Shown here piece after piece: positions 8,401 through 60,608 of a stretch of 63,603 nt of DNA. A program made the position numbers and the translations under genes. A model generated the notes under the pieces. The model was not told the origin of the DNA. It did not search any database and saw only the letters and a program-made list of their open reading frames with translations. The stretch comes from Catajapyx aquilonaris (lineage: Eukaryota). The stretch covers positions 1 through 63,603 of the forward strand of contig JYFJ02002067.1 in NCBI GenBank assembly GCA_000934665.2, read 5' to 3'. Position 1 is the first letter of the stretch, and the number at the start of each line of letters is the position of its first letter.

Positions 8401-9780
8401 GGAAATTGATGATTATGGTGTTTTGAAAATCTGTGTCTGAAATTCATAACTGTCAACTGATATGCAACTTTGAAATGAGAAACCCAAATCTCCCCAGTAA
8501 TGCTGTAATTTGTCAAACTTTTACATCACCATCATGTGCAACAGACATGGAGGACATTATTTTAATCCAGACCAACTATGTGTGTGCTATTCACTGCAAC
8601 AGCACATTTTGTGTACTTCCATGAGTGCAACACTTTTGATCATACGACAGTATCTCATTGCATGTTATTAGTGCAGTCAATAAAGAATGTGCCATATTTA
8701 TTGTGGAAAAACTATGGCCCATGTAATAATGCCGATTGGCTGGGATAACCTTCAAACCTTAAGAAAATTATGCACATGTTCGGCCTGAGGGAGCATGTCC
8801 TGCAGGAAGCAACCCACTGAAAACACCGTTCAGTCAATAAAATACGGGCTGAAGGCTACACATAAATGTAGCATTTAACTTTTTTGTGATGAATTAGACC
8901 TTTATCCCACTGAGACATAAGGCATACAATGGCCTGCTCATAGAAGTCTTTGGGTTGTTCCTTGGAACCACATCCCAACCCCCCTCCTCCCCTTCATCGT
9001 CTGTCTGGAATATGCCTCTGCGCAAAGCTTTCTTCAGTTCACCAAGAACGTGAAAGTTGCAGGGGAACAGGTCGGTTCTGTAGGCTAGTGGGTGGATGGC
9101 AGAGGACTTCCCCTTCAATTAACGCACAAGATTTTTGATGTTTGCTGTATAGGGGTGGGAATTATCATGGCATTCTGGCACGCAGGGATTGCACTTGGAT
9201 GGCACTTTTGGCAGGTCGCTTGGCTTTTGATCACAATTATGATGCGACACCTACTCCCTCTAGACGCAGATGCGCATAACATTCTTTGAGGTTTGAAGGT
9301 CATCCCTGCCGATCGGCGTTATTGCACGTCCCATAGTTTTTCCACCATATATACGGCTTGTTACGGCACCTAATACATGACCACTAGTGTGCCAAATCCA
9401 TCCTGAACCTGTGACACATACGCAAAGACAGTCATCAGCATGGCAAATGAGCAGTGAGCGCAAGAACTGCGCAATTATTGGTCCCACTGGACCCAGGAGC
9501 ACACTGTCCTCCCGTTTGGGTACCACAGTTGTTGAGCGGGAGTGTCCCTGCCAGTTGGCCCAATGAGTGCAGTTAAAAGACCCATGCAGATTGTGTGCCC
9601 TTTCAAGTGCCGTGTGTGTCAGGCTGGGGAGGAAGGGCAGGGCCCCCCTTCTGCCCTCTCCTGTCAGTGGACGACTGCCTCGTGTATACCTGTGGTGGGC
9701 CTGGCTCCGATCGGGTGCACCAGACAGCACCAGCAGCAGAAGACCAGAAGGAAAACAAACGGAGCCAGATGCTCCGCCAT
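5411..9780 (-). CDS. sax: BMP/activin type I receptor of the Saxophone/ACVR1 (ALK1/2) class, ~615 aa
   Basis: Exons 9690-9780 (signal peptide [26 protein letters not shown]), 7694-7998, 6313-7397, 5694-5919, 5411-5551 total 1848 nt, in frame. Features: Cys box [10 protein letters not shown] helix, GS box [12 protein letters not shown], kinase motifs [20 protein letters not shown], and ALK1/2-type L45 loop [13 protein letters not shown]. Confidence 0.94.
8843..9120 (-). mobile_element. Degenerate mariner transposase 3' fragment in sax intron 1
   Basis: Peptide [34 protein letters not shown] is a decayed form of the mariner HPPYSPDL.P.DF..F..LK..L.G.RF..D.E motif. Boundaries are approximate. 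Confidence 0.7.
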
Positions 9781-11867: not shown

Positions 11868-14800
11868 TTAGATGAGCCTCTCTTCTGGTGGGGGCTTCAA
11901 CACATTGTCAAGTTCTAGCCTTGGGTTGCAATATTCTTGCCTACTGGGACTGTAGGTTCCTCGAGTAGCCCTCTTCTTGCGGGCCATAGTGATAAATATT
12001 GCGAAGCCAATAGTAGCAATGAGGAGGAGTGTCACAAGTATGGGCACTACGATGATGGCCACACTGATTCCTTCTGCATTACCGGCTCCCTGTGAGATAT
12101 TGAGACACGTTGAGTTGTAACAAAAGCTTCATGCAGCTTTATGAACTTACCTTTCTGCATGAGGGTCCATAGTATGGGGGAGTGCACATGCACATGTAGT
12201 TTACAGGCAGGGAGGAGTTAAAGCAGTAGCTGATGCAAACGCCACCATTCATGCATGGGTGTTTCTAAAAAAAAGTGCAATCCCAAGGGCATGCAGTATT
12301 GTGGTAGTGCAAAGGTTATACTTTAATTATTTTATTAATTTCATCCTCAGATTATTATTGGTGTAGTACATGCTTTTCATTTCAGAGACTTCTGCCACAT
12401 ATTTAACCCCTTCGGTACCAGATCTAGGGGGTGTGATTTTCTTCTGTTCAACTTTCACGTACTCTGAGGATATGGACAAGATATTTTACAAATAACAGCT
12501 ATACTTACACGTTCATGTTGTACACTATGAATATGTTTGGAGCAATTTTCCACTTCTGGAATTCGTAAAATTAATTTCCAAAAAAATCGATGTCAAAACT
12601 AGAAATTAAATTACTGCTGGCCAACTGTTAGGCTGATTTAATTATGAAATACGTTAAAATGTACGGAATAACAACCTTGAGAATCATGCTATGGCGAAAC
12701 TGCTGAAGCTGTCGCACTTGCGAGAATTAAATCAATTTTGGAGTTTTCCAAAGTGAGAGGCAAGCTGCAGTAAGTATAAATTTAATTCTCACGAAGTATT
12801 ACGATTTCAGCAGATTCGTCATAGCAAAATTTTCAAGGTTGTTGTTCAGTATATTTTAAAGTATTTCGGGGAGACGGAGTGGCGCCGCGGTAACGTGCGC
12901 GCCCACGGATGTTAAGGTCCCGGGTTCGATCCCAGCCCGGGGACACCCCCTTCATCTCGTGCAGAGTTCTGGGGTCGTCTCTGGCTTCGTCTCGGGTGGT
13001 ATATCCACAGACTAAACCACCCGGGGGAGTTCACAAAACGACCAAGCACCGTTACTGCACTGCACTTGCACATCTCTTCCTGTCATCCTGCCCATGGGCC
13101 CGGGCGCTTCGAATATGGCACCATGTATACTTCGATTGAAATAATAAAGGTCCGTGCAAATACCCTCTGGGTGAGCACTAACCCAACAATTATTATTATT
13201 ATTTATTATTATTATTATTTTAAAGTATTTCATAATTAAATCAGCCTAGCAGTTGGCCGGCAGTAATTTAATTTCGAGTTTTTACGAAGATTTTTTTGGA
13301 AATGAATTTTGCGAATTCCAGAAGTGGAAAATTGTTCCAGACATATTCATAGTATACAACATGAATGTGTAAGTATAGCGGTTATTATATTTGTAAAATA
13401 ACTTGACCATATCTTCAGGGTACATGCAAGTTGAACAGAAGCGAATCTCGTCACTTAGATCCAGTACCGAAGGGGTTAAGTACAGGATATTTGCAAAATG
13501 CAAGGAAATTATAGATATCCCGAAAGGATTAGTTATTAAGAATTTCAAACAGGAAGAGTTTATGCCACATGCAGTAGAGTTGTGCTAATTTGAAATTCAC
13601 AGATGCAGATTTCTCAATCTGTTTTTTTGTTGTTGTTGTTGTTGTTGTTTTTTTTTGTTTAAAAAAAAAACAAAAAAAATACAGAATACCAGCAATGAGA
13701 CTTGCTGTTCGCTCAAAATTCTCTAGGCACATGGAAATTATGCAATTGCTTTTGACATGCATGAGTAGAATTCTGCAAATTTAAATTTACTTTCAGGTTA
13801 CGGTATGTGTATCTTGCACGTTTCTTACCTGTGACTGTAATATTAAATCTTTACACAAGCACTTTCAACTCTCTGCATGTGTAATATTTAACTTGCATAC
13901 GGAATTGGTATATATTTGTTAAAAGATGTAGCATGCTGGTTGACATTAGAGTGTGGTTAGTGAAGGTAACAAAATTCCTGAAATAATATAATCAGAGTAT
14001 TACACACCTCACAAGGATCTAAGCTGTCGCATCGTGGTCCACAGAAGCCTTCATCACAGGTGCAGATATATGATCCATTTGTATTGTGACAGGTACCATT
14101 TATGCAAAATGAGCCATTTTTACATTCATCAAAGTCCTCTTCACAATGTCGGCCAATGTAATCTGTAGAAAATGCATATTGTAATTATTTTCATGTCATG
14201 AGGAACAATAACTTTCTGGATATTCTTACTTGTTCCAGTGCAGTCACAGGTGTAATTATTCAAGAGATCATTGCACTTTCCTCCATGGTAACATGACTCG
14301 AGAAAGCAATCATCAGTGTTGGTTTCACACTGCTTGCCTTCATATCCCTCCATGCAAGTGCAGCTGTATCCCTAAGGAAGAATTAATTTATGAGCATTGT
14401 GTGACATTCTGCAGCTCCAAAATCATTGGCAGACTTACGTCATCAAGAAGGCCAGTGCTTGTGCAGGAGCCTTCATTTTGACATGGATTGCTGTAGCAGA
14501 AGTCTTTCTTGGACTCACAATCATCTCCTTCATACCCAAATGGACATGTGCATATGTATTGATGCACAGTAGATGACACAGTACCTTTGATATAGAGACA
14601 TGTAATGAACTGCCCAAGCAGAACCTAATTTGAAATACTAACTTGGTTCATTTTTGCAAATTCCTTTATTCTGACATGGAGAGTCGCTGCAGTTCTTCAC
14701 TCTCTCTAACTCACAAGTCTTCCCCACATAGTCTGGTGGACATATGCACTCGAACATGTTGAGTTTGTCTTCACAAGTGCCACCATTCTGGCATGGGCTT

Positions 14801-17800
14801 GATTCACATTCGTCCTTGTTGATCTCACAACTGGAAACAGAAATGTGTCAGTTGTGTTGCTCAGACCCCTTTCTTCAGCCACCCCCCTCCCCCTCCCCTG
14901 TGATTGTAACACTTATCACCTGATGCTATGGAAGAGTGTCAAAATTTACAACAATTAAATTTGTTTTAACAGGCAGTGAGTTAAGTAGCACTTTTATTCC
15001 TGCCTGCTCATCACTTAGAGTCTTATAGTATCTAATCTTGTGGAAGATCCACTGCAGCAATTTTTCCCTAGAGTTTTCCTCGCACATCCTGCCATAGGTA
15101 CCGGTACCCCTGCACTTACAATGGACCGGTGTATCCATCAATGCACTGACAGGTGTAGTTTGCTATGAGGTCCTCACACCGGATGGTTGAGTTTTGGATA
15201 CATTCCGCATTTTTGCATTCATCTATGTTGACATCACAGACCTGTCCCTCATAGCCAGGATCACAGCCACAGTGGAAGTGTACAGAGGGATCTAAGCAAC
15301 TTGACCCATGTTGGCACTCGTGGTCATAGCAGAGGGTGCAGCTGACAAATAAAGGGAAAAATATGGGGTTAAATTGTGCAATCACCACCTGAAAAAAATA
15401 TGAGTCAATAGCAGTAGATATTAATACAGTATTTACAAACCCATCTCTACACTGGCACACCTCACTATACCAGCTTCCCGATATATCCATCACATACAAA
15501 TTTTCAAACATCTGATCATCCCAGATTTTACAGACATGCTGCTCTAAGCTCGAAAAAATATGGTATTATTTCTCCTGAGCTTTGTGTCTCAGAAAATAAA
15601 GTACAGTACTCATTTTATGGTGCACACAGGTATTTACGCGGAGGGACATATGCTAACAAAGATTGAGCACATACTTGTAAGAAACGTATTCCTTCTGCCC
15701 ATCAATGTGGAATGCATTGGGAGCCATCTGGTGAATGAACTGGTGGTTCATATCATTCAGCTCCTCAAGGGACACAAATGGAAGTAGGAGTCCTCCTATC
15801 CTGACCTGGTCCAGGCAGCCTCGGAAATGATTTGCATGTGTGCCACTGGCAGTGTGGACTCCAACACGTGGAGTCAGGGATGTTGACGATGAGAACGAAT
15901 CAGATGTGGCAGTGTAATAGGTATATTTTGGCGGAGTCCAGTCTTCTCCAGGGCCACTACCCATTGTTACCTACATGAAAATGATTTTAGCTCATTGCAT
16001 GTTGCATTTCTTATGTTCTGTAACATCATCCTCCATATTCCCAAAAAAGTAAAAAAAATTGTGCCTATTTTAGGTTTTTTTGTGCCTATTTAGGTGCCTA
16101 TTTGAGGGTTTTTTCATGCCTAAAAATCCGGACTCTGCTGATGAGTTACAGTACTCTGTACATGTAGTATTAACATTTATAACTCCATAGTACTTTGAGA
16201 GAGAGAAAAAATGGAAGCTGACATTGCAAAAGAGGGAGTAGTTCATAGGGGATGGCAAATCCCGCATATTCCAAATGCTTCCTGTGGCCATATGATTAAC
16301 AAAGTTACAAAATCTTGGTCTCAGACAGAACTTGCGTAGTTCTTGCAAACAAAATTCAATCCAAATCCTTGTTTAAGAAGACCACCATGATTTTCCCCCT
16401 TCCCATATGTCTTCAGAAAGGTATCAATATTATATGCTAGGTATTAGAAATGATCCTCACCTCTCCATGGAGGACTAAATTCCTGAAAGCCTCTCGAGAG
16501 GTCTCTTCTTTGAGCAACACAACATCTTGGCTGTCCATCTGCCCTGTGATCTTGGTGTCAAACACAAGTGTGACATCATGCCAGTTTCCATCAAGTGCAC
16601 CTTCCCCAAATGACCCATTCACCACATCTTCCCCATGGTCCAAATTCCATTCCATGTACACTCCATTATGATCCACTCCAATCACAAGAAAGTTGACCTT
16701 AGCAGCCGCAGGTACATCATCTGCTGGGATGTCTGTGGTGTGTGCAACATCTGCTGACTCTGAGACATGGTTACTCTCGTAGATGAAGAGAACAGCACCC
16801 CCAACCTGGCTGCGAAACCGGAAGGTGATGTTTTCAATAGTGACAGCATCACCATCTGTCATATTGACCACCAAGTGCAAGGAGCTGTTGGCACCATTGA
16901 AGGTGGCAGAGGACTGGCACTCAAACCCTTCGTCTATGCTTTTGCATGTTGTGGTCTCAGGGCACTGTATCCTGGAGCAGAACTCTGTTTCCTGGCAAGT
17001 CTTCCCTTTAAAGCCTGCTGGGCAATGGCACCTGAGAATGGAGCAAAAGAAAGCATGTGATACCTGTGACTTGGGGAAAAGGGCAGTAGTATATTGAATT
17101 CCTAGTAAAAATGAATGATTGATTTGTTTTTCTTAATGGTTTCATTAATAACTCAAGCTTTCACTGAGTCGCATGAGCATGACTTCTGGCAGGTACAAAA
17201 GTAACTGCTGTTAGCCTACTCTCAAGAAAAATAATCAGAGTGGTCTGCAAACTCACACAAAGTCATTCCATGTGACCTGGCACGTTCCATTGTTAAAGCA
17301 GGGATCTGCAATGCAGGTGTTGTCAGATAATTCTCCTCGAAGCAGGCTCGCCCTTTCCACCTTCCCTAGGGTAGGTGGCATCCTAATGGAGCTGTCATTC
17401 AGTGGGAAGAATTCCACTATCCGCTTCTCCTTTCCAAAAGTAACCTGCAAAACACCCAAAATGATCAACTCAAGCAGCATTTGCTTTCCATACGAAATGT
17501 CATAGGTGGAATTATTATAGGGTCCATTTGGCTCAAATTATGTGTGTAAAAAATTTAACTTGATTGCTGGAATTATGGGACTTAAAATGATAGCTTTTTG
17601 TGTTCAGAACCACTTGTCAAAGTCTCAACTAGCCTACATGTAAATCCAGAATTACATCACAACAGCTTAGTTACTTGGTCTTCTGTTAGCTAAATATAAA
17701 CAGTATTTGAATTTAATGGCTGACTTGTTATCTTTATGATAACATGAATGAAAGCATCTGCCAGAATTATAGCACAGTATAGCCATTTTGCGCCATTAAA

Positions 17801-20800
17801 AGCCTAACTGAACTAGAATTATAAACTGCTTGTAACAAGTATCATAGTTCTGAGCAATAAAAATTTTATTAGGCGTAATATTAGCCTCTTCATCCTTCCC
17901 CTTCAGCAACCAATAAAATAAGTAACATAAGAGTCATGGTCTCATTACATGAAATGGCGCTCTTTCAATATTCTGATCTTGCAGTGACACATGATCGCAT
18001 TGGTCTTCAACCACTTTATTGTTGTTGATTGTTATTATATTCAGGGATGGAAAAAGAACTGCTTCCTTCCAAGAAGCGGTTCTTTTTCCATCCCTGATTA
18101 TATTGATATTTAAACTTGGTTGTTAAATTTTTAAGCATTTCTCACCTGCACATCTTGCATGACTCCCTTGAATGGCGTATGCCTCTCTTTCTCCAAGGAT
18201 GCTGCTCCCATTCCTGAGGGTGGGATAGCACTAGCTTGTCGCCTAGATCTGGGATCACTTCCTTCCACTCCTACAACTCCAGAGCTTCCGCTACCTCCTC
18301 CAGTTGCACCAGTTGGAGTTGCAACTGGAATTGCTCCCAGGTACATAACACGTGGCTCTAATGGTGCCAAGATACTACTGGTCTTCCTGAAATGCTCTGT
18401 CCCATTGATCTGCACCTGCAGCAATGTGGCGCTGCGATTGACCATCACCAGATGGTGGTTGCCATCATTCAGTCGCAATCCACTGACAGTTATGTTTTCC
18501 CCTTGCTCCTTGAACCTCATCTCCACCTTCAGCTGGCCAGCCTCCAGCCAAGCAGCAACGTAGGAATTGCCTCCTTCCCTCCACGGGCTCTGACCCGAAT
18601 CAAACATGTCACCCAAGTAGAAGAGGAACCCAGACAGATGCCTAGTGCGAATGAACATGGAAACTGTAAAGGATGTGTTGAAATGGACCCTGGTGGTGGA
18701 GTTGATGGTAACCACTACCATGCTGTCATTGATGTTTTCATGACTGAATGTGGCGGCTGTGTAATCTGAAAGGTAGCAGGATGTTATGTAGTAACTACAT
18801 AGTAACTTTTTCTTTACGTTAATGTTGTCCAATATAATGGAAACGTGTCCATTATGGAAAACTTTCATGGAAAGGAGTGATTACACCGCATAGCCTATAG
18901 GTGTCACTGATATTATTATTGTTGGTTTTTACATTGTTATTGAACATACTACCATAAAAACTAATCAAGCCAATTAACTTACTGTATTTGCAGGTGTCTC
19001 CTAAGTATGGCCTGCGGCAACTGCAAGTAAAGTTCCTCCAAAGGTCAGTACAGTTTCCATTGTTCTCACACGGATTGGGTACACATTGAGGAGTACGTGG
19101 GCACTTCTCCTCTACGTTGACCAGTTTTAGATAATTTGAAGGTTCTGGAATTATCAGTCCTCCATTGATGTTGATATCTTCCATGCAACCAGCAAAGAAA
19201 GGTGTGTTGGGCACCAGAGGTCTGAGGTTTGAAGTAGCCCCACCCAATAGTGTGAGATTGAAGCTGGTGTGAGTTGCATTGATGGTTTCAGCAGGGTTCA
19301 CTGAAGAGATGCTCAGTTCATCATTGGCCGAGAGAACCAAATGGGTGATATTGAGGGAAACCCCAACGGACTGCCAGCTGTCATTGTTGAGCCCATTTCC
19401 AATGTAGATACCTTCCCAGCGGTTTAGCAGGCTGGTGTGAATGTTAAGCCTTCCATCTTGAAGTTCAAGGCGATAGTATGTAATACCTTGCCCTAATGCT
19501 AACAGTACACTGGGGAGTGTTGTTCGGAATCTGAATCTGAGTTCATACCCTTCATCACGTTCTGACTGCATTATTATGTAAGATGATCCGTTCATGGACA
19601 CTGTGGTAACTTTCTCACAGAGATCACCATTAAAACCATTCAGGCATGAGCAGTTGTGCCCATGCTGTGTTTCGTTGTGCACAAATGGTATACATGTACC
19701 ACCATTGATGCACTGTATACCATCACATCCAATCAGAAGTACACTGCAGTTCTTCCCTCCATAGTCTGGAGGGCAGCTACATTCATAGTCATTGACTCGG
19801 TCTTCACAAGGTGCATTCAGGCAGGGATTGTATCGTGCACATTCATCTATCTCTATCTCACATCGGCTGCCTTCATAACCTGGCATGCAGCTGCAAGTGT
19901 ACATGTTAATCCCATCGATGCAAGCTCCATGGTGACACTCGTTGTTCACGCAGTCATCGATGTTAATTTCACAGTTTTTCCCCTGAAGGCCATCAACACA
20001 CACACACACATATCCAGCTGAGGTGGAAACATCGAAATGCTCAAACTCAGCCCGACCCAGTGTGCTGTTCTCGTAAAGTGTCCTATTTGAGAGCTCCAAA
20101 CATGTACCACCTCCGGAGCATGGATTTGATTCGCATTCATGTATGTCCTCTTCACAATTCTTCCCGGTATACCCATCGTGGCATTCACAGCGATAATCCT
20201 TCACTAGATCAACACATGTACCCTCATTCATGCATGGACTGGACTCACAGTCATCTATACCACTCTCACAATGGTCACCGTAGAATCCAGTATTGGTGCA
20301 GTTGCAGGTGTAGTTGTTCACCTGATCAATGCACTGGCCCTCATTCATGCATGGAGCAGACTGGAAACAAGTAGTTTTGTTACTGCCATGTGTAAGCCTT
20401 TAAAATTGTTATACATACCTCGCACTCATTGATGTTGATGTGACACAACTTTCCAGTGTAACCAGGAGGGCAAACACATTTAAATGAACCAATTCCATCG
20501 ACACATGTTCCACCATTTTCACACAGGTTTGGATTGCACTCGTCAATGTTGATATCACAGTCACTCCCTGTACAATGGATATAAATTCAAACTGCTGTCA
20601 ACATGATAAATATTACACTCTTTTTAGCAAATTTGGAATTGTCATTTGTTGAATACCATGCATGTATCCTTGCATATCCAGAATCAGAGACAAAGAGTAT
20701 AAAATAAAATCTTGTGTTCACAACTAATAGGAAAGAAGTAAATGTAATAATCTACAAATAGAAAATTGGCGCACCTGAAAACCCCGTTTGGCATTCACAC

Positions 20801-23800
20801 TGGTATCCATTCACTAGATTCTTGCATGTTCCATTGTTGAGGCACGGGTGGGACAGGCACTCATCAAACTCAAGCTCACAGTGGTCACCCGAAAATCCTG
20901 GGCGGCAGAAGCACTCGTAGGATCCTATTGCAGTAGCAAAAATTATCAAAAGAGTTTTATAGGTAGCCATTTCATCTGCTGCACTCCACAATGACTCAGA
21001 GGAGACTGTTCACCTCCCCACAAGAGTCACTGGTAAATATACACACACATGTAATGCAAGCAGGTGCATGACAGAACAATGGGACTGGTCTCATTAATAT
21101 GAATGCGTGACTACACTAGTCACGCTTAAGGACCCATTTGTAAATGACCTGAAATCACAAGAGACGCTATGCCATAAATTAGAAGACAATTTAATCCAAG
21201 GATCCAAGTCCAAGGCTTTTCCCTGCAGTACTACACCGTAAACAATCATTGATGCAATCTTTCTCCATAAAGTTATATTGTGGAGCATCATTTACCCAGT
21301 CGTAAATAATAATATACATGTCGTGTGATTATTCAGTCTGAAACTTGTGCTGTACCAGGCAAGATATGTGTAATAGTTGTAATTCTGTTTGTCTGTATTA
21401 TAACTAATGGATGTTACTGCTTTACTGCTTTGCATCTCCATTACAATAAAAAGTTACAGATTGACTGTAAGTGCCAGGAAGATAGATTAACCACTTCCCA
21501 GAAGCTGGCCATAACAAAATGCTCAAATTGTCAAGGTAATGGCGCAAGCCTTAGTTTACTTGAGGCATTTATCTATTACTATTAGACATAATAGTTGGAC
21601 AGAATTTCCAATAACTCGTGAAAACAAATCCATCACAACAAAAATGGTAGATATTAAATTTAGTGAAACCTATCTATACAAGGCGTTTCAGAGTCACGGG
21701 TCAAGCGCGCACAAGAGGATGGGGAAAAATCGTAGGTGGCGACAACCTGGTCGGTTTAATGACACAATTAGACATATGGCAGTAATCAATTTATTTATTA
21801 CGGCCATATGGTGTGACATCACATCCTTTCTGTTCGAGTTGACTGGTGCGGACTGGCAGGTGCAGTAGTGGGTTGAATCTGGTTGAATGGCTTTTTAGCC
21901 TTGCAGGTTGCACTGAAAAAGACGCTCTCCTGCTATACTGTACGCACTACTGTACAGTTAGTACACTACTTTGTACAGTACCCTACCGGTATAGCAGGAG
22001 AGCACCTTTTTCAGTGCAACCCGCAAGGCTAAAAAGCCGTTCAACCAGGTTCAACCCACTACTGCACCTGCCAGTCCACACCAGTCAACTCGAACAGAAA
22101 GGATGTGATGTCACACCGTACGGCCATAATAAATAAATTGATTACTGCCATATTTCTAATTGTTTTATAAAACCGACCGGGGTTGTCGCCACCTGCGATT
22201 TTTCCCCACCCCCTCGCGCGCGCTTGACCCGTAACTCTGAAACACCCTGTATGGTGTGTTCAAATGAAACAAAAAATTAGGCAATATCTCAAGAGCTATT
22301 TGTCTCAGCTGAGTGCTAGTGGTATATCTGAGTAGGCACTTGCATGGCTAATTTTCGTGCAGAGTAGTTAGTAGTCAGTATGTATGTAGTAGGAACGAGA
22401 GCATTTTATGCAAGTCTCCCAGGGCTATGGATTTGTCCAAGCAGGCACAATTCACCATCATCCCTTTTCCTCATCAAGGAAGGAATTTCACCAGTGGACA
22501 TTGTCCATTGGATGTCAAGGGCAGGTGAAAAAGCCTGTTTCAACCACAACACCTTGGTGTAGAAAACCACTAAGGAAATGTTCTCTAGAAAGGTCCTCCA
22601 TGCACACCTGTCTTGACAAAAATTCCCTACACCTTTTGAAGAGAGTCTTGTGGTTGAAACAGACACTCCCATGGACCTTCTGCATCCAATGGACAATGTC
22701 CACTGGTGCAATTCCTTCCCTGATGAGGAAAAAGGATGATGGCGAATTGTGCATGTTTGGAAGAATCCATAGCCCTGGGAGACTTGCATGAAATGCTCTC
22801 CTGCCCATTAAATGCATTCAGACTACTCTGCATGAAAATAAGCCATGCAAGTGCCTACTCAGAGATACCACTAGCACTCAGCTGAGACAAATAGCTCCTG
22901 AGATGTTGCCTCACTTTTTGTTTCATTTGAACACACCTATTATATATCAAAATTACCCTGTTCTGAAAAATTCTCAATGTAGTGAACAGGTGTCCATTAT
23001 ACAGCATTTCATAATTTAGCTCACATCCATAGCAGCAGAAATTTCACACCCACAAGCTCAGGGCCCTGAGGGAAAGGGTGCATATTCAGTTTTCCTGGCA
23101 AGCTCAGGGATAATGCTAACTTGATGCAGGAGAGTCCATGACATTTCAGCTGATATGGGTGTGAACTAAATTATGACACAGTTCATGTCAAAAGTGCACT
23201 AAAATTCTAGAACCAGAATGAAACAAAGTTCTGTTATTGATGAAGTGTCTCTGATAGGCAAGTTAAATTGCATCAGCTAACCCCACTCCATTGAGAAACA
23301 TAATGAATTTTTTGTCTATTTGCATTTTTGTGAGGGATATTATTCTGCGGTGTATTTTATTGCCCTTTGCACACTCTTGATCATGGGAGTATTTTATGAA
23401 ATATTGTAGGATGCAGATGAATCACACATTACAAGATGCAGAATGCAGTTATAAAATGAAGTGGTGAAGGTGCAATATTATGCCATACATGAACAATATC
23501 AGGGAAGTCACAATAAGCACCATCACCTGAATATAGCTCCCACCCTTGTAGAACAGAATTAGGAAGTCACATAGGTTGTCATTAATTTGTAGCAAGGTGA
23601 ATCCTTTTCTTTTTACAGACAAGTCTGAACCAATAAACTACAGTGCCCTATCTCTTGTGTAATGTCGTATGCAACGACAGCATCAAGAAAGTGATTACAC
23701 CTGCTGAGTAAGGTAACAGCCTTGGCAGATAAGCTACAAATACCCCAACGATAGAAATACAGAAGTAGAAGCTATTCACTTTGTCAAGTCGCTAGAAATA

Positions 23801-26800
23801 TCTGGCGTTTCCAAAATAAATCACGAAAGCTGTGGCTTTTCTGTACTAACATGCAATAGAGTGTATTTAAAATTAAACTTCAGTTTCCCTGATGAACAGA
23901 CTCACCCTGTGTGTTTTGGCAGATCCCATAGATACAAGGAGACCTTCCCTCACACTCGTCAATGTCTGTCTCACAATTGTGTCCGGTATAACCTGCCTTG
24001 CAATAGCAGGTATAGTTATTGATCCCATCCACACAAGTACTGCTGTGCTGACAAGGCCTCGAAGCACAATCATCAATGTTAGAAGTGCAGTTTGCACCAT
24101 TAAATCCAGCTGGACATCTGCACTCATAACCATCCACAAGGTCCACACACACTTGGCCATCTGTGCAGGTCACTCCAAGGCAGTCATCCTTGTTATGCTC
24201 ACACTGAAGTCCTTCGAATCCCACAGGGCACTCACAATAGTACTTGTGGTCAGGTGGACTCGTGATGCATGAAGCCCCATTCATGCAGGGGTTGGAGGCA
24301 CATTCATTGTAGAGCAGCTCACAGTTGCGACCCATGTAGTCAGAGGGACACAGGCATGAATAGTTGCCCACCAGGTCACGGCACTCCGCACCATTCTTGC
24401 AAGGGGCCGAGTTGCACTCATTCACATTAATCTCACAATAGGTACCTGGTAAAGAAAGATGATAGTTGTACCAATTGGCTGACATTTTAGTTTGAATCCA
24501 GTGGGTTCATTAATCCTCACCTTGGAATCCATACAAGCATTGGCAAGTAAAGTTGTCCATTCCATTGATGCAAGAAGCACCATTCTGGCATGGGCTGGAT
24601 GCACACTCATCAATGTCCTCACTGCAGTTCTCATTGGTCCATCCAGGCTCACAGGTACAGCGGTATGATCCAACCTGCAAAATAACAGATAAATAATTTC
24701 AATGTGAAATGAATAACGCTGGAACCAAGAGAGAAATACTCACAGTATTTTCACAGCTAGTAGCATGTACACAGTGCCGTTCCTCAGTGCACTCATCGAT
24801 GTCTTTTTCACACCAGTGACCTTTGAAGCCAGGTGGGCAAATGCAGGTGAAGTTGTTGATTCCATCTTTGCATGTTCCACCAGATAAGCAAGGCTGGCTC
24901 TGGCATTCGTCTATGTCCACCTCACAAGTAATTCCTGATAGAAAGTGAATGGGGAATGCAAGCTGAGATAAGTGCTGGATATCTTACAGTTTATGAAAAA
25001 CACTTTCCCTACCATGCCTAGTATGCAATTTATCATTGGCCTGCTATGTCAGTCAGTACAAGTGGAATTTTGTTGGTCATATCCTAAAGTACACTTTTAA
25101 AAATTTGTTACATTTTTGGACAGACAAGTGAGCTGGAAGAGACTGAAGGGAAATGCGGATTGGATTCTATTTCTAGTCAGTCTGTACTATCTGTCAAAAA
25201 AATAAAAATTCGGGGCTATGCAACCATCAGCACTCGCCCAAGGTGAAGTCTGCATAAAAAGATAGTTGCACAGCTTCAGGATACGTTTAGCTTAACATTT
25301 TTTTGACAGAAGGAACTATATGAGATTTTTAAAGTGATGCCACCTTTTTCAATGCTTTATTTATTTATATTTATGCACTTTTCTCCCTAAACTTGCCTAC
25401 AGCAACAAAAATAAAAACTCCCAATGCAAATGCTGCTTATCAGAAGCTAAAATGAATGCTTGTATTTTCCATTGTTTCTATTCTTAGCCTGCCATGAACT
25501 GCTACACAAAGAATTCAACTTCCCTCCGCCTACAACTGCGTTTTACGACCGAGAATAACATCAGATAAAACTCAATAAAAATCCGACTGTACCTGAGAAG
25601 CCAGCGATGCAAGCACAGTGAAATCCATCCCTCCTGTCGGTGCAAATCCCACCGCTCTGACACGGATTATCCTCGCACCGCAAATTCTCCGTGCAGTTTG
25701 GAGGTGTACCTAAAGCAGCAACAAAACCACTGTTAAAAGCAGGTGACGCAACATGGTGAATGCAGCCGAGAAAATACCAGAACACGGCTTCCACCCATAT
25801 CTACGAATCTGCTGGCCTCTTCCTTCAATCACCACTGCCAAGTAAGACACAACTAGGAGCACTATCACTAAGCACTTGTAGTTCATGCCCATTGCTTCGG
25901 ACTGAGCGAACAGAACTGTAGCAGGGCTCCTAGGCGACTGGCGCCAGCAACACCTTTGTTTTCTGGCTGTTGTGCAGCATCCCGTCTGCAGCGGAATAAT
26001 TGTGCCAGGAAGTACCTTGTTTGGAGTTAGTCATCCAAAGGCACGGTTCGCTCGGTTACAAAAGAACGCGGACATTTGCACACACATACACACCCAGGTC
26101 AGGCCGGCTCGGAGGAAGCGAGTCCACTAAACATTCGTTTGTGACACACACTTGGCATGCTCGGAGGCGGGGGAAATAATAATAAAAAAATAGCACAATG
26201 CAGTGCAAAGTTCATATCTGGCCGGCCTTGTACACTGTACGGGCATTTCGATTTAGGAGCACATGCTAATCGCAAGGCTGCTTGAGTGGGGATTGGTCAT
26301 GTTCCGATTTGATGGCGGCACGCGCGTGCCCGAGAGAACTTTACACCTTGCAGACATACGGCCTACATGCCTAGACAGTCAATGTATGACTTCACCAGAA
26401 AACAATTGTTCATATATCTCCGGTAGACACGACTCATTTCCAATAAGAGTTGTAATGCCGCGAATTACAAATCCCCCTTTGTGTAACAAGAGCTGACTGA
26501 CCTGCTCCACGGCAGATGCATTGACCCTCGTGACACAGCATGTAGTCCGGACATCCACTCCTATTGCTGCATCTCATACTGTCCACCTCACAGTGGACCC
26601 CCTCGTGTCCAGGTTGGCAGAGGCACTTGAACCCTCCCACCAGGTTGAGGCAGGTGCCTCCGTTCGTGCATGGAGATGAGCTGCACTCGTCCACATGCTG
26701 AGAGATGACATTTGAAATGACAGCATTCTCTGTCAACAAGTCACCGCAACTTACCTCTCTGCAGTTAGGTCCGCCATATCCGGGTTGGCACTGGCACTCG

Positions 26801-29800
26801 TAGGTTCCGTATCTCCTGAAACACCTGCCCCGGTTCAGGCATGGGTTTTCTTGGCACTCGTCCACGTCTTCTTCGCAGCTCTGTCCTTGGTAGCTAATGA
26901 CAGGGCGTACAGGTTGGAAAATCATTTGTCATCTCAGCCGCCACCTAAGGGTGTGTCAACTTACCCAGTGTCGTTACAGTCACACTCGTACGAGTTGATA
27001 CCATCAGTACATACGCCACCGTTTTGACACGGTCTGGAGGCGCAATCGTCAATATTTTCCTGGCAGTCCACTCCAGAGAATCCTACAATACAACAACAAT
27101 AGCGGCCATTTGATAGTCGATGCTCGGAATAAGGTCGTGTTTACCTGGTGGGCATCGGCATACATAGGTGTGAGTGATATTGGAGATAACGCACGATCCG
27201 TTATTTCGACACGGATTGGCTTGACATGCGACACTTTCCAACACCGTCTCGCAGTAACGACCTGAAGGTTGAAAACTATAATTAGAACCTCCGTGTTTGG
27301 TCCGGCATATCAACAGGTTTTGGGTGTGTCACCAACCTGTGAAATGAGTTGGGCAAAGACAGTACGTCTGGTTCCCGGATGAAGCTTCCTGGCATGTTCC
27401 TCCATTTCTACATTGGGAAAATTCAGGGCGACTACACAGAGGACCTGTAGCAAACAAGTGTATCAGAAAACCCGTACCATATAAAAGCTGGATAGATGAA
27501 GCAAATTGTGTTAACCATTGAGAGAAAAGAGCACACACATCATGCGAACCAGTGTTACAGTACGATTCTCATGGGTTAGATTTTTTAATGTTACAACACA
27601 ACAAGAGATACATCATCTGCGGATGTGAATGCAGGTGCATAAGAGAGAATTCACCTGTGTCGATCTCACAGTCGGAGCCAGAATAGCGTGTGGTGCAGCG
27701 GCACTCATAATCCTCATACCCGCCCATGCAGTTGCCATGCCCGTGACAAAGTTGTCCAGAGCAGTTCTCTAGCTGGAAGTCACCTGCGGGGGGATCAGCA
27801 GTGCCGAGGGTGTTTTTGTCTCTTTTTTTGTTTTGCCGACATGCATCAGCACGTAGATATGTGCATTCACAACACGTAGGTTAGTAGGGCCCGCGCTCTT
27901 ACAACTGTGGCAAGTTCAACGCCCAGCAGCTCGTGTGAGGGTGGGAGCATCCACTCGGCTCAATTACACAACTTTAGTTCAGAAAAATTTCGACATAGTG
28001 AAAAGGAGAGAACACAGAAAACTACTTGTTATCTACGACGACTCTCAGAGTAGGAACAGCAGTGCAGAGGAAATTACCATGCTGGTGTGTGAAAACACAT
28101 ATTTGTCACAAATTATCTCCAAACATGTATACACATAGAGGGGTGGATGGTACTAACTGCAATCGAATCTGGCCGGAATAGGGCATGGCCCCCATTTGAC
28201 CCTGGCACTTGTGGCGTGACCACTGCTCAGCTCCACGCCAGGACCCTCCAGAATGCAACCCACATATCTCTGGCCCACGGTCAATGGGAAGCTGCTCTCC
28301 AGCAGGTTGGGATTGATGATCTCCGGCTGAATAAGACCACAAAATGTATCCATCTCGTATGTGTCATACATTATGTGTACCTACGTTGTACGTCGCATTG
28401 GCGACCAATACGCTGAACCTGTCCACGCTGAGTATGAGTTGACCCAACTGGTATTGCAAGTCGATGTCGTGCCATTTGTTGTCACGAAACGACTCGCCTA
28501 TATCAGTCACGTACATACTCTCTTCTTCTTGCACCGTGAGTCGCAAAGTCGAGTTTTCCAGCAGGGACAACCGGAAGGAATTGCCCTCGCCAAAGCCAGG
28601 TCCCTTTTGGGACAAACGCAGTTATAGCACATGTCATTGTCATAGTAATTGGGTATTCACCTGGTTGAGTAAAGTTCCATTTGCACAGGTACGAAAGCTG
28701 AGGCCGATGTGACCCCTGAGTGAGCTGATTCCTGGTAGACGGACATATGAGGAGCCGCCGAAGAAGCCCTCCGAGTGAGTGAAGGGCGCCGTCGATGGCT
28801 GCGACAATGATGGCACTGCTGCTACCGCCAACAAAAATGCTGAAAAGGTATACAAAAATTGGGTATTGGGTCGTTGCGTGACACCACTCGACCACAGGCA
28901 AGGCCATTCAGAGTGTGGTACACTTCCCACCTGCACTGGTCCATGAGAAATGGGCTTTCCTACATGGGACTAATTAAATTTTCTTAGACCAGGGAGGACC
29001 ACGTCTATCACGCGATAATAAGAAATAGACGACCCTATTTTACAAAACTGTTCACGTCACATGATACGCATGTTACAAATATTTGCGTGTGGCAAGCCTG
29101 CTGTAAATACAGTACCATCCTTTTTACCATTTCCCACATTAGCTCTACCTTGCGTGACACCGTACCGCACGGGTGCATAACCTACGGACAACATATGGTT
29201 TTCCTGAAAAAACTGTGGGTTGCCTTTGTGAAGTCCCCATCAAAGTCAACGTGCAACTGTAACCCCGCTAACTGCTCCTTGTGAGAAATTGGACCCAAAC
29301 CACCCGGCGTTACTTCACACCCCAATCCAGCCGTAAAAGAAAAACCCGGTTTTTGGTTTCCGACCGCCCTCGTTAGGCGCCCGAAATTTTTGTTTCGATT
29401 TACAACCCGCCTCTAGCCCAGGAACCGTGCTCCAATGCTTCGACTGGCCAATGCCCATACAATGGAAGGCCATGTGTGCAACGTGGACACTAGTTTGTAA
29501 GGCTGTCAAGTGGGTGACCATTTCCTTGATTGAAAGCAGGTGGCCCCCTTTTTTTTGGACCCTCCCTCAGGTTCCTGGCTGGACCACTGTTTCTTCTCAA
29601 ACTGGAGTCAGGGTCGGGACCTAATGGGCCGTGGACATAAAAGCAGGCATCGTGTTACTTTGGGGAGAAAAAGGGACGGTTTTCAAGGCTTTGGAGTGGT
29701 GTCACCAACCTGTGCACCAGTTCGAATTCAGGACGTCACCATGGCGCAATAGGTACAAAAACGCAGGTAAATCGATGGGGCCAGTCACCCGGTTGCACCT

Positions 29801-34852: not shown

Positions 34853-35169
34853 GTCCACGGAACAACAGTCAGGAGGAACCGAAATGTGAGGCAGTGTCCA
34901 TCCCGGCCACGAAAACGCGACTAAATTCAGATTCCCAGAGCCCACTGCCACTTGTTTCCATTCACCTGAGTGACGTCAGGTTTCCCTCCTCCACCCTCCC
35001 CCTCTGGCACGAACTAACCTCCTCCAGGCCCGATGCATTCCTGGCGTTAGATGGCAGACCAGTGTGGGAAAGTACCGGCGTGACCAGGGTTCTGTGGTGC
35101 TCAGGAGGTGCTGGGAGCCATCTAGTGGAAGGGGCCGAAGAGTAAGGAGAATTTACTGAAATCAGAGAG

Positions 35170-35175
35170 TTTATT
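35170..35175 (-). terminator. AATAAA polyadenylation signal of the crumbs-like secreted gene
   Basis: TTTATT on + strand, ~120 nt downstream of the TAA at 35293-35295. Confidence 0.55.
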
Positions 35176-35292
35176 GCTGCATACAGTACAGATACAGTAG
35201 CTGACACGTTTAGTAGGTTGGTCAAACAGTAGTACCCGGATTCACATCCGAAGAACCTGTGGTACCTTCCGGAGCTAAAAAGACCACCGTTT

Positions 35293-38200
35293 TTATGATA
35301 GGCTGCTGCGAAAGTCGCATAGCTTTCCGATGAATCCGTCTTGACAAACGCAATGGAAGCTGCCGTAGTCGTCCACGCAGGTACCGCCGTTTTCGCAGGA
35401 CAGGAACAGACACTCGTTGACATTTTCGCTGCACGTTGTACCTTCATGGAAATTATGATTAGCCAAATGTGACAAAACTGGTATACGTCCTTACCGATGA
35501 ATCCAGGAGCACACGAGCACTTGTAGCTGTTGACCATATTGACGCACGTGCTGCCGTTCATGCAAGGTTGGGACAAGCACTCGTCGAACTCGAATTCGCA
35601 AAAATGTCCCGCATATCCAGGCCGACAATAGCACTGGAAGGAGCCATCAGTGTTTTGGCAAATACCATTCTTGCAGGGACTTCCCTCCGCGCATTCGTCA
35701 ATGTCTTGTTCGCAATTCACGCCTGGACAGCATAATAGGACGTAACTAAAGGGTGGAGAAAGGTCATCATGGGGTGACTCACCTGTCCTCCCAGGAGGAC
35801 AAACGCAGGTGTAATTGGACACGCCTTCGACGCATGTAGCCGAAGAGTGGCAGGGAGATTCGGCGCATAACCTTGGTTCTCCGCATGTTGGACAATCGGT
35901 CGGCTTGTGGCAGAGAGCACCCTGGAATCCTATCGCATGATTATTCACACAAGTTGTGGGGGACTATTGGCCTGTTGGACACACCTGGTGGACAAATGCA
36001 GGTGAAATCAGTCCCGCTCGATTCGCAAGTACCGCCGTTTAAGCAAGGGTTGGGGGTACAGTTATTCACTTCCACGTTGCATTTTGCACCGGTCCAACCC
36101 GGTGCACACTTGCATCTGTGGGTGTCTCCCTGGAATGATGATTGTTAGCAATATATTGAAGGTTGGAGATAGGCGGCACTTACATCGTCGATGCATTCTA
36201 GGGAGTGCGGACCGCAGGGGTTGGCAGCACATGTGGAGTAGAGTAATCCGCACCATGGACCGGTGTACCCTTCCGTACATCTACATACGTACCCTTGGGT
36301 GAGATCAACGCATGTGCCGCCGTTCAAACATGGTGTTGAGCTGCAGTCGTTCGTAGGAAGTTCTGTTTGGTTACCTAAATGACAGACATAAAAATGCTAT
36401 TAATACATGCTCGGTCCACAGTGATGTCATGCTGCTACACCTTTATTGCACTTGAGTTCCTGGCACGTAGATTTGAACCTGAGGCTGGCGTTGTTCTCTT
36501 CGCCACCGTGTAATCTGAGTCCAGAGCTTTCCAAAAGACAGCCCATGAAATCATTTCCGACAACTAGGGATGAGGTAGATGAAAACAGACCAGCAGCGCT
36601 CTGCAAATCAAAATGATAAGTTACATGCCAAAATAACGATAATTTACCTTAGTATTGGAAAGTTACATTCTATTAAACTTATTGGAAGTGTAAAAGTAGC
36701 TTTTGTTGTAATATGATACAGGCGGATACTTTTCGTGTGGAACTTATAATGACATCTTTGTATCATTCCTGCACTCAGCATATAATTGACGTGGGTCGCT
36801 CTGCAAAGGGTATAAGCTGGTCAATTGTTGGGGAGAAGATAAAACCGGGCCCAATAGGAAATTAGGTTGCCCCATACTGATATGCGTGCATTTTTGGCAA
36901 TGGATTAATTCAGTAGACCCTATGCATGATATACGAAATGTAATCCCACACGTTCCGATAAATAGCTACATCATTACAGCATGTTTAAGATAAAGACGTC
37001 ATCACCAAAAATTTTACATATCACTCCATTTTGGAACATTTTTCTTCACTTAAACTTACTGTAGGACATGGGCCCTAGCTTTTCATTCTCATAGAGTAAT
37101 AGACTCACAATAATACTGTCAAAATATTTAGGAGTGAAAGGTTTCCCAAAAATGTCGGTAAGAACATTAATTTGCTAAAATTTCGTCATAACACAAGCTA
37201 AAATTATTATTAATTTATGACTTGAAAAAACAAGCCCTTTGTGAGTATATCGCATGTGTTAGAGGCAACGCAAAACCAAGGGCGATCGCACTGAATCACG
37301 TATGGGAAAACAATGCCCTTTCTCGCACGTATGTTATACAAGTTCGCCGTATAAAAAATTTGTGTGGAAAAAGGGCAACATTTTCGATACAATCTATACT
37401 ATAGTAACACTGAACAAGTTGTCTAGGGAATTACCCTGAAAGCAATGTAAACCGCTGTGGTTTGCACTTGGTCCACTTTGAGATTAAAGGCTCCGTTTTG
37501 ATACCAAAGCTCGACGAAATGCCACTGACTGTCATTCAGGTTATTTCCCACGTGGGTAGCGATGTGTCGGCCGTGCCTTTGGTCGTACACTCTGAGAAGT
37601 AATGATCCGTTGCTAACCAGTTCAACCTCCAGTGAATCGCCATTTGTCGCCCGCTACCAAACAAGGGAGAAAAAAAAGTGAGATAGGTGAGTTGGTTACG
37701 CCAAGTTGTTTTTTTACACTCTCGCAATTGCGCAGCGCAATTTATGAGAGGACCTAAAAAGTTTTTTGTGTGCGTATTGTTCATTCATCGAGTGTCACTG
37801 CAAAAATATCTGGCTGAATGCCAATTAAGTATGCATGCATTCGGTACATGATCAATGTACAAATGAACGTGACACCTGCAACTTATCGCTGATAAAAAAA
37901 AACAGGCTTTAAATATTTTTAATGGCATTTGTTACTTTTAATGCTCGATTGGTTCAGTAAGTGCCACTCTGCATTTTGAGTATGACCTTCCACGTGTGTC
38001 TTCTATAAACTATTGTTACGCAACGATGACCTGCGGGACACGCGTGCATATCTCTTTGTGCTGTGTATACAGAGGACCAGGCTTTTATTATTGGCTTTAT
38101 CCTTGAGTTACGATGTGGTAACAGAGTGACCAATCTTGAACTATACCCAACCTGTTGCAAGAGAGATCCGGGATGACAGGTGCGAAAGCTGAACTCGGTG

Positions 38201-38858
38201 CGATCGACAGCAGATGAGATCGGAGGTAGAATGAGTCTGCTGGATCCATCCAGATACAACTCTCCCAGCGAAGGTGGCCTCGGATGTACCGGTACGGCAT
38301 ACAAGAGTGCTACTAGAATTATGCCGACTTAGCGAATGGGGTGGAGGAAAAAAAACAGTAATGAATACCTGGTGCTAACTAGGTTAGTGATTATCTGAAG
38401 ATGAGTCTGATTTAGTGCAAAAAGTTGGCGGCCTTGATACAAGAGTTAGGATCTTTTTGTAAAAAAAAAAATGAAGAAATTTTTCCTTGACAAATATTCA
38501 GTAATGTTTTTTACTACCCATTTTGCGTTTGGGTTACGAGGTCAGTGTTTTTTTGCCGACTAATGATTTGCAAATCATTTCTAAAACGTTTGAAAAATAT
38601 TGAGTCAGGCATTTCCCTTTCTTCTTCAATAATATACTCAAGGTAAAGAAAAAGGGATGCAACCTTGACAAATGTCGCCAGGGGTAGCTGATTCTTCCAC
38701 ATTCGATCAGAACCATAAACAAGCAAATTGCGATCGTAACTATTTTTATTTCGAGCCACCCTGCGAAATAACTCCCAAACTTCTTTCACCCAGCACTTCC
38801 ATCAATCTTGATCAAAGTAACACTTTCTGACTACCAAAAGGGTCATCTTACCTGTCAT
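35293..38858 (-). CDS. Crumbs-derived secreted protein (~473 aa): signal peptide + Crumbs-type N-terminal LamG + 7 EGF repeats, no TM or cytoplasmic tail
   Basis: Nine in-frame exons totalling 1422 nt: 38852-38858, 38152-38327, 37435-37653, 36441-36600, 36184-36374, 35985-36129, 35783-35929, 35495-35722, 35293-35441. N-terminus MTVGIILVALLYAVPVHP. LamG motifs FSFRTC, LNDSQWHFVELWYQNG and GNDFMGCLLESSGL parallel crumbs [22 protein letters not shown] and [14 protein letters not shown]. Ends GFIGKLCDFRSSLS*. Confidence 0.85.
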
Positions 38859-40572: not shown

Positions 40573-41587
40573 TTAGCCAGTGACCACCTGGCTGATGGTC
40601 CCCTGCTGTTGCTGAGCCCTCTTGTTGTTTGCGTTGTTGGTCTGAGTGGAAGGCGAGTTTGGCTGCTGGAACCGGCTGCTGCTCAGCAGCGGCGAGGAAG
40701 GATTGGAGTTGTAGTCTCTGGCGTTGTCGACCTGGTCCCTGACATGGTTTATGTTCTCCGGGGTCGGGCTTCCGGTCAGATAATCATTGTGGTTGGACTG
40801 CTGCTGAGTTTGTTGCTGCGACAGTCTGCGAGGCGTCGTGTTGGCCGAAGACCTGCTGTCGGTCGAGGCTGCTGCGGCCACGTCGCAAGGACCGTCTGCG
40901 TCTGAGTCGGACAGAGTCTTCTCGCTGGCCAATGGAGGCACATTGTTCTGGTACTCGTTGCGGAAGTTGTTGTTGCCTGATGGCCGGTAGAAGGCCACCA
41001 CAAATGCGATTGGAGAAGAAGCGGATTTGGCCAGACCGCAACCGAACTCCACGCTGCTCTTCCACAGCACTTGGGAGAAGTGGAAGGTCGCTGAAAGTAA
41101 GGACAAATCACGTGATGGCTTTTTAGTCAAAACATCCATTGCCATCTCTGGATGCAACATACCTTTGGACCAGCGCGGTGACCCAAAATCGTAGTTCCTG
41201 ACCTCAGCGTACCAACTGGCCACGATGCTCTCTCCGTTTGGTTTCTCGTCGTTGTTCTTCAGCTTCACCATGCTGATGTTCTCTCCCCAGCCTGCAACCG
41301 TAAATCCGAGTTAGCAATCCGATCAGCATGCCCAACCCATCATCCTCACATTGATTTTCGGAGTACTGGACGAAGCCCTTCTCGGCCAGCTTCTCGGCCC
41401 AAGACTGTGCTCCGTGAGCCAGCTCATCGCTCCAAGACATAGGAGGGACATCGTGGAGTGCCCGGAACTGATTGTGAGCTTGCAAGCACTCGGCCCGGAA
41501 CGACTCGAGGGCCTCGTTGTCTAAAGGTACAATCAGGAACAGTGAAGATATGGACGGACCTGTGTGCTCGCAGTACTCACCAATCAT
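40573..41587 (-). CDS. CAP/SCP-domain protein, GAPR-1/GLIPR2-like, with Q/N/S-rich C-terminal tail
   Basis: Exons 41581-41587, 41350-41520, 41163-41291, 40573-41090 in frame. Motifs CLQAHNQFRALHDVPPMSWSDELAHGAQSWAEKL, GENI, SWYAEV, HFSQVLWKSSVEFGCG, FVVAFYRPSGN. No signal peptide. Confidence 0.88.
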
Positions 41588-43779: not shown

Positions 43780-44841
43780 TCACATGGAGCTTATGGCATT
43801 AAGTGCTTGAGATATGGCAGTGACTTTCTGGAGTATTTCCTCTCTTTGGTCCTCAATAAGTCTTGACCCACACTGCTGCACAAACTTGTCTGGATGCCAC
43901 TTGAGTTGCTGCTCCCTGAGGCACTTCTTTCTTGCTACTGGATCACCCTGCGGCATCCCCATCAGGATCGCATTGACCATGTCTTCGTTGCTGTTGGCAG
44001 ACAAGAATGGCAGATCCTTGATGCCAACCTTGCTGCTTGAACCCTTGGCAAAAAGAAGGTGGCACTTGTGCCTGTAGTCAGCAGACCACCGCCCCAACCG
44101 ATTTTGGTGGCGAAGCTTCTCCCGCGCTTCCTGTTCCCGCCGAGACCGCTCTTCGAATGCAGCTTGCTCTTTAGCACTCCATTTAGGGCCAGTACCATTG
44201 GTTTTAGCACTGGAACTGCTGGGCTTGGTATTGCTGGTGCTCTGAGAGCGTCTCTTCGCCTGATGCTCCTGGAACAAGCGGTTGGCCCACTCGTCATAAG
44301 TCTCATGACGGTGCTCATCATAATCAGCTCCGAAAGCCCCCCACTCTGCATTGTACTCGTCCTCAAGCTCATTTGCCAGCCTGTCTGCCCACTCTTCGTC
44401 AGAGTCGTCATCTTCGGGTACTTGAGCTGCTATGTATTTTTCTAATTTGTAGAGCAACTGTGCTGTAGTTTTCCCTTTGCGATTAGGAAGGTGCGTGGAA
44501 CCCTCCATCATTCGTAGCATTGGCTCCAGCACATCTTTGTAGGTATTTGTGAGATATTGCGACCCACGGTAGCTGCGACGTAATGCTGACCTGAGGGCGT
44601 AGTATGTGGCAGTGTTGCCCTTTCGGTCCATCACATTGGGTTTGGCCCCCATGGCGATAAGGATTTTCACCAAATTCCAGTTGCCACTTCGGCAGGCAGT
44701 ATGGAGAGCCCGGTGCCCCTTGTGGTTGAGCTTGAGAGTGTTTAAGTCCACTTCGTAAGCGCCCAGGAATTCTTTCAGCAGGCCTTCATCATTCAAGCTA
44801 AGAAGTGCTGTCAGTTGCTTGATCATCCAATGCTTCCTCAT
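43780..44841 (-). CDS. NFKBIL1: NF-kappa-B inhibitor-like protein 1 (IKBL) homolog
   Basis: Single long ORF with ankyrin repeats (GHRALHTACRSGNWNLVKILIAMGAKPNVMDRKGNT), acidic EEWADRLANELEDE/ETYDEWANRL segment and C-terminal LREQQLKWHPDKFVQQCGSRL. First ATG at 44841; an upstream exon via the acceptor near 44855 is possible. Confidence 0.82.
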   Translation of the reverse strand: MRKHWMIKQLTALLSLNDEGLLKEFLGAYEVDLNTLKLNHKGHRALHTACRSGNWNLVKILIAMGAKPNVMDRKGNTATYYALRSALRRSYRGSQYLTNTYKDVLEPMLRMMEGSTHLPNRKGKTTAQLLYKLEKYIAAQVPEDDDSDEEWADRLANELEDEYNAEWGAFGADYDEHRHETYDEWANRLFQEHQAKRRSQSTSNTKPSSSSAKTNGTGPKWSAKEQAAFEERSRREQEAREKLRHQNRLGRWSADYRHKCHLLFAKGSSSKVGIKDLPFLSANSNEDMVNAILMGMPQGDPVARKKCLREQQLKWHPDKFVQQCGSRLIEDQREEILQKVTAISQALNAISSM

Positions 44842-60577: not shown

Positions 60578-60608
60578 GTGAGTATCACTGGTGCTTGTAG
60601 GTATGTGC

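Follow-up and report, generated by a model that had tools for sequence, protein, structure and literature searches.

Short forms of Crumbs that start inside the gene are known from vertebrates. In zebrafish, transcription of the short form crb2b-sf starts in intron 7 of crb2b (PMC7044448, citing Zou et al., 2012). In mouse and man, a promoter specific to CRB1-B lies directly upstream of a 5' exon found only in CRB1-B, for which a signal peptide is predicted (Ray et al., 2020, PMC7335077). CRB1-B predominates in the retina of both species and is needed for junction integrity, yet it long remained unannotated (PMC7335077). Here we report on the crumbs gene of Catajapyx aquilonaris. The window, i.e. 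the whole stretch of DNA analysed, comprises 63,603 nucleotides (nt) of contig JYFJ02002067.1 (assembly GCA_000934665.2). Within one intron of this gene lies a candidate alternative first coding exon with a signal-peptide-like leader. Its use would yield a membrane-bound Crumbs without the N-terminal head.

Among the described systems the candidate most resembles crb2b-sf because the canonical tail is kept. In both cases the start is intronic and the first EGF repeats are lost, while the rest of the ectodomain, the transmembrane helix and the tail are retained, here as a prediction. Unlike the candidate, which is known from sequence alone, crb2b-sf belongs to a vertebrate paralogue and is supported by RNA. 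With CRB1-B the candidate shares a unique 5' exon with a predicted signal peptide and much ectodomain in common with the long form. However, CRB1-B has a unique 3' exon and a different transmembrane and intracellular part, whereas the candidate frame ends in the canonical ERLI. In addition, CRB1-B is backed by long reads, ATAC-seq (chromatin accessibility sequencing), an antibody and a knockout, unlike the candidate (PMC7335077). Drosophila crb exons 4/5 (Crb_B/D, Crb_C) occupy the same EGF7-interrupting intron, after an exon ending in C-x-C-xxGxx (Spannl et al., 2017, PMC5312091). They differ from the candidate in being internal, mutually exclusive cassettes that are used with the usual first exon. 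According to the authors, the region of the alternative exons is not conserved in Apis or Tribolium, and Crb_C shields photoreceptors from light. The available part of this paper mentions no internal promoter; the word 'promoter' occurs in it 0 times (PMC5312091). The beta-neurexins belong to a different gene family. Their beta-specific exon carries its own signal peptide. As proposed here for crumbs, a long EGF/Laminin-G receptor gene gives rise to a short form by way of an internal promoter (PMC11909895). A limited keyword search of the open-access literature returned no report of an arthropod Crumbs form from an internal promoter.

All coordinates are window positions, and crumbs is read on the minus strand throughout. 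The exon model was built from open frames, the alignment chains of 12 relatives and phase-matched GT/AG sites. It has the following parts:

26502 to 28839, minus strand: head of the long isoform, 8 exons encoding a Laminin-G domain, EGF1-6 and most of EGF7; 476 amino acids (aa) from exon 2 on.

25710 to 26501, minus strand: host intron of the long form, 792 nt, splitting EGF7 between Cys5 and Cys6.

25778 to 25892, minus strand: candidate alternative first coding exon, 115 nt, beginning with ATG, 38 codons plus one base.

25710 to 25777, minus strand: intron between leader and shared exons, 68 nt, with donor GTATTT and acceptor TTGCTGCTTTAG/GT at 25709.

25593 to 25709, minus strand: first shared exon, 117 nt, phase 1 at both ends, encoding the last cysteine of EGF7 and most of EGF8 (EGF, 29.2 bits).

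11868 to 25709, minus strand: the 18 shared exons, encoding EGF and Laminin-G repeats, the transmembrane helix and a tail reading RGTY...ERLI, followed by the stop.

The identity of this many-exon gene was established by a co-linear tblastn chain against five named Crumbs proteins, running from about 28843 to 11871. Among the 120 database matches listed, the named ones were mostly 'protein crumbs'. The highest identities, 53-55%, were with the proteins of Artemia, Cephus, Procambarus and Daphnia. As the best relatives, pancrustacean and insect Crumbs, are only this similar, no close relative is present in the collections. Pfam matches on the exons were EGF, hEGF, EGF_CA, Laminin_G_1 and Laminin_G_2, the last with 27.8 bits on the head exon 28603-28385. 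Together with the tblastn chain they give EGF arrays interspersed with Laminin-G domains, i.e. the type I membrane architecture of Crumbs. The last exon encodes RGTYSPS and then PPPEERLI with the stop, and thus has the juxtamembrane GTY and the PDZ-binding ERLI of Crumbs tails. This tail is 56-73% identical to those of the relatives. The functional role of the GTY and ERLI motifs is established (PMC7335077). In the long form, the donor at 26502 (CAG/GTCAGT) is spliced to 25709. The exon with the ATG of the long form lies further upstream and was not located: between 28.9 and 34.9 kb no candidate had a phase-1 donor scoring 3 or more, except for one spurious frame.

The candidate exon starts with an ATG at 25892. 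It is the first in frame after a stop, and no other ATG lies in the 86 nt between 25978 and 25893. Its context is GCA ATG G, with a purine (G) at -3 and G at +4. The leader has the n/h/c layout of a signal peptide. A short n-region, MGMNYK, is followed by a hydrophobic stretch of 16 residues from C7 to I22 (mean Kyte-Doolittle value 3.2), and cleavage likely occurs after G24, as predicted from the leader. The exon ends at a phase-1 GT donor, CTG/GTATTT, with 25778 as its last base. The 68-nt intron that follows contains a TTAAC branch-like site about 24 nt before the AG and a pyrimidine-rich tract. It falls within the short class of this gene, in which 12 of 25 introns measure 55-75 nt. Spliced in this way, the short form consists of 19 exons, all with GT/AG boundaries. 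It reads without interruption over 5658 nt including the stop, i.e. 1885 aa ending in ERLI. The Laminin-G domain of the head, six whole EGF repeats and most of EGF7 are missing from it. Thus, a unique 5' exon with a start codon, a signal-peptide-like leader and an in-frame splice to the shared exons is present in silico. A first-pass annotation of this DNA had described an ATG-led hydrophobic leader with a phase-1 donor 68 nt from the shared exon, an open frame of this very length and the peptides at the two junctions. The independent 19-exon model reproduced all of these, including CICRGA-G-TPPNC for the long and WKPCS-G-TPPNC for the short form. The annotation's name for the host intron, intron 10, is the one item that found no confirmation, with eight exons placed upstream of that intron.

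Could such a leader arise by chance? Signal peptides were scored by a heuristic of our own (not SignalP) which asks for a hydrophobic, charge-free stretch, 10-20 residues long, that begins no later than residue 13 and has small residues at positions -1 and -3 after it. On both strands of the whole window 36 of 2751 ATG frames passed. The leader ranked first with a score of 51.6. It outscored real transmembrane helices of choline-transporter-like genes and the leader of a receptor gene at 9780; in the apparently non-coding DNA of the window the best scores were 43-44. As a null model, 6 Mb were simulated by an order-3 Markov chain trained on the 25 introns of the gene. Of 133,867 simulated ATGs, 1079 passed the heuristic, and 57 passed together with a phase-1 donor at least as good as that of the leader. 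Only seven matched the leader's score, none of them with a comparable phase-1 donor. Accordingly, in the introns of the gene (223 ATGs on the sense strand) about 0.012 leaders of this strength are expected, and about 0.0006 if a compatible donor is required as well. Over the whole window and both strands the corresponding numbers are about 0.14 and 0.008, i.e. a phase-matched donor lowers the expectation roughly 20-fold. These expected counts are rough because the heuristic is home-made and the threshold equals the observed value. Chance is an unlikely, poor explanation for the leader and its donor. No tandem repeat was found in 25500-26600, nor a second copy of the host intron or of the leader in the window. 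A likeness over 13 residues between the tail of the leader and an EGF repeat of the preceding exon had an E value of 0.53 and was dismissed as fortuitous.

Next to the leader, two features of the DNA bear on a start site:

24900 to 25600, no strand: change-point in the observed-to-expected (o/e) ratio of CpG, from a single-point fit over 14-29 kb; 0.73 on the 5' side and 0.31 on the 3' side.

25900 to 25905, minus strand: initiator-like motif TCAGTC, with its A at 25903, 11 nt before the ATG.

The host intron has a GC content of 0.49, the highest of the 25 introns; the others of at least 200 nt range from 0.30 to 0.46. The CpG o/e ratio was 0.74 in the eight head exons (76 observed, 103.3 expected) and 0.32 in the 18 shared exons (101 observed, 315 expected). 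The introns followed the same course, with 0.65 in the head, 0.86 in the 5' part of the host intron and 0.32 downstream, one intron with a CpG-rich kilobase being excluded. The best change-point was at about 25500, positions from 24900 to 25600 fitting almost equally well, which places it 300-1000 nt downstream of the leader ATG. This fits a gene-body depletion of CpG which begins behind a start site active in the germ line. The motif TCAGTC presumably conforms to the arthropod initiator consensus. It occurs 71 times in 127 kb compared with 77.6 expected by shuffling; therefore, the chance of finding it within 60 nt upstream of a given ATG is about 3%. The CpG boundary and the initiator-like motif are two independent, circumstantial signs which fit a start near 25.9 kb.

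Across the window CpG forms a mosaic, with o/e ratios of 0.04-0.5 in some gene bodies and 0.9-1.2 elsewhere, which suggests that some gene bodies are methylated in the germ line of this animal. A CAP-domain gene and the third choline-transporter-like gene also have CpG boundaries near their 5' ends, at about 41.6 kb and about 54-55 kb, respectively. A CpG-depleted intron of 1743 nt close to the 3' end of crumbs contains about 1 kb (12400-13400) with an o/e ratio of 1.0-1.1. The longest frame in this CpG-rich kilobase had no Pfam match. The kilobase might represent a recent insertion or a further regulatory island.

Several observations speak against an alternative first exon. A search for shared words found no counterpart of the leader among 5.8 billion proteins (71-2000 aa and 34-109 aa). 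A phmmer search of 1.84 billion representatives returned one match, a tandem-repeat artefact. None of the 120 listed Crumbs relatives begins with a leader of its own at the equivalent of EGF7/8. Six of them lack the N-terminal domain (P0040, P0042, P0051, P0056, P0075 and P0091); these look truncated or mispredicted. The missing leader in the relatives is weak evidence because none of them exceeds 55% identity. A search of metagenome contigs with the last head exon gave 42 loci, all at most 52% identical and coding for generic EGF proteins, so no close relative was at hand in which the homologous intron could be inspected. The codon usage of the leader is intron-like, with a mean log-odds of -0.10 over 38 codons (exons of the gene versus its other introns); this value is equalled or exceeded by 41% of stop-free intronic windows, and only 1.1% of exonic windows are that low. 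We count this test as weak because training exons rich in EGF repeats are unfair to a signal peptide. The donor scores 2.3 in a generic matrix, which is in the lower quartile; five of the 25 real donors are no better. The extra cysteine of the leader is out of EGF register, and a start at TCAGTC would leave a 5' leader sequence of 11 nt, short for efficient initiation. The CpG boundary might just as well mark where a 13-kb CpG-normal domain (25.6-38.6 kb) ends, with no relation to a start site. To this is added the provenance of the heuristic and its threshold mentioned above. The lack of matching proteins, the intron-like codons and the weak to middling donor are also what one would see if ATG, hydrophobic codons and GT had come together by accident in an unused open frame, in an intron which possibly carries regulatory DNA. 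Furthermore, like a random frame, the frame does not end at the donor but stays open for another 22 codons, up to a stop at 25713, and the candidate was singled out from the entire 63-kb window. Against such an accident stand the low expected counts, the first rank among 2751 ATGs and the coincidence of both the CpG change-point and the initiator-like motif with the leader. We hold an accident to be unlikely.

Another possibility is an internal cassette exon, in which the donor at 25778 is combined with an intronic acceptor such as that at 25834, adding a short peptide to EGF7 by a 57-nt insert. This deserves weight because the host intron corresponds in position to the intron of Drosophila exons 4/5, and because of the EGF cassettes of Hymenoptera. 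The intron splits EGF7 where the product of Drosophila exon 3 (aa 195-525) ends with ...ECVGGKCVCKPGSS, which is homologous here, and in the fly, exons 4 and 5, which change EGF7, are placed between exons 3 and 6 (PMC5312091). Annotated hymenopteran isoforms differ from one another in EGF cassettes whose ends lie immediately before the following exon. The host intron indeed offers 68 stop-free candidates with phase 1 at both ends, nine of which use the donor at 25778. However, none of the 68 has a strong acceptor, and the intron encodes nothing EGF-like. The best four of the nine reach acceptor scores of 1.2-1.95 and the others are lower, whereas real acceptors of the gene score 0.9-5.8, mostly about 2.5 or higher. 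Short versions would bring in one unpaired cysteine, and longer ones would place a hydrophobic stretch of 16 residues into the ectodomain. The ATG and the exceptional leader are left unexplained, and we give a cassette a low probability. Still less probable, to the point of being hardly credible, is a separate small intronic transcript or relic, which could be an unspliced hydrophobic frame of 60 codons (25892-25713) or else a decayed copy of a U6atac-like small nuclear RNA (25835-25721). The unspliced frame has hydrophobic ends. On the same strand, the whole Rfam model RF00619 matches with 22 bits (E 0.0027 for 601 nt searched, 0.0091 for 2 kb), and runs of T follow the match. Yet 22 bits is below the gathering score of 33, so that membership in the family is not supported. 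Half of the 3' stem-loop is missing (8 model positions deleted), the conserved 5' box has a gap of 3 nt, and no TATA-like element was seen about 25-30 nt upstream. The ATG-led leader, which lies upstream of the match, is not accounted for either. The match (25721-25835, minus strand) overlaps the end of the leader exon and the 68-nt intron, and is regarded as chance or a relic. The whole window contained no Rfam match at gathering score and no tRNA.

We lean, with moderate confidence, towards 25892-25778 being an alternative first coding exon of crumbs that is served by a promoter inside the 792-nt intron splitting EGF7. The membrane-bound 'headless' isoform proposed by the first-pass annotation thus stands as far as anatomy goes. 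The sequence anatomy and the open frame are complete and, by our computation, improbable as products of chance; the promoter, the use of the splice sites, cleavage of the leader and any function we infer. Transcription would begin slightly upstream of the ATG, between about 25978 and 25900. The candidate exon would provide the start codon and a cleavable signal peptide, and the 68-nt intron would be removed through the acceptor which it has in common with the long form. As a type I membrane protein, the predicted Crumbs would measure 1885 aa, or about 1861 aa once the leader is cleaved off, and would lack the N-terminal Laminin-G domain and EGF1-7. The other EGF and Laminin-G repeats would be retained, as would the transmembrane helix and the canonical tail.

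The first-pass annotation had also suggested that the cysteine supplied by the new exon pairs with the otherwise orphaned Cys6 of EGF7. This is possible and gains no support from the spacing, which is C-x6-C, whereas 30 of the protein's 34 repeats have C-x8-C. Among 14 random residues encoded by intron, a cysteine would turn up about 50% of the time. Cysteine parity was considered as evidence and rejected. The shared ectodomain has 173 cysteines, to which the leader adds one; the argument fails because the count for the long-form model from exon 2 on is odd as well (219).

The surroundings of the candidate were surveyed as well. Within crumbs, an intronic ATG at 20970 (minus strand) reads in frame through the acceptor into the exon at 20924. 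The hydrophobic stretch is weak (score 26), and the frame is probably a pyrimidine tract read as protein. Directly upstream of crumbs, in CpG-normal DNA, lies a unit at 34965-38328 (minus strand) whose N-terminal Laminin-G domain (40.1 bits) is accompanied by several EGF repeats. It matches Crumbs relatives in pieces only (chain of about 300 bits) and is apparently either a paralogue resembling the head or an EGF/Laminin-G gene in its own right. Just downstream of crumbs, at 6267-9780 (minus strand), is a gene for a TGF-beta/activin type I receptor (Activin_recp, GS motif and kinase) with a signal-peptide-like start at 9780. An exon of the CAP/cysteine-rich secretory family (40576-41310) and an ankyrin-repeat gene (43783-44865), both on the minus strand, are located between the upstream neighbour of crumbs and a region at 46500-61000 (plus strand). 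In the latter, at least three near-repeated transmembrane segments start at 47478, 51266 and 60188, and Pfam Choline_transpo matches are at 48269-48667 and 52147-52338. The region apparently carries choline-transporter-like genes in a tandem array.

Little is understood of what the large Crumbs ectodomain does, and differences between isoforms have mattered. A bolder, and in our view doubtful, extension of the alternative first exon is that the internal start is the main germ-line-active crumbs promoter in this animal. The CpG-depleted, presumably methylated, gene body would then start just behind the leader exon, and the nine-exon, CpG-normal head would resemble a separately regulated module. 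Under this extension an arthropod would independently use the headless design of zebrafish crb2b-sf and mammalian CRB1-B, in the same intron which serves Drosophila for alternative EGF7 exons. If the alternative first exon itself is real, a known type of isoform, the vertebrate short Crumbs with an intronic start, would be extended to a new phylum. A natural arthropod isoform without the Laminin-G head and EGF1-7 would be a clean handle on the function of the head. It would also suggest that short forms from internal promoters are a recurrent, perhaps old, property of crumbs genes and not a peculiarity of vertebrates.

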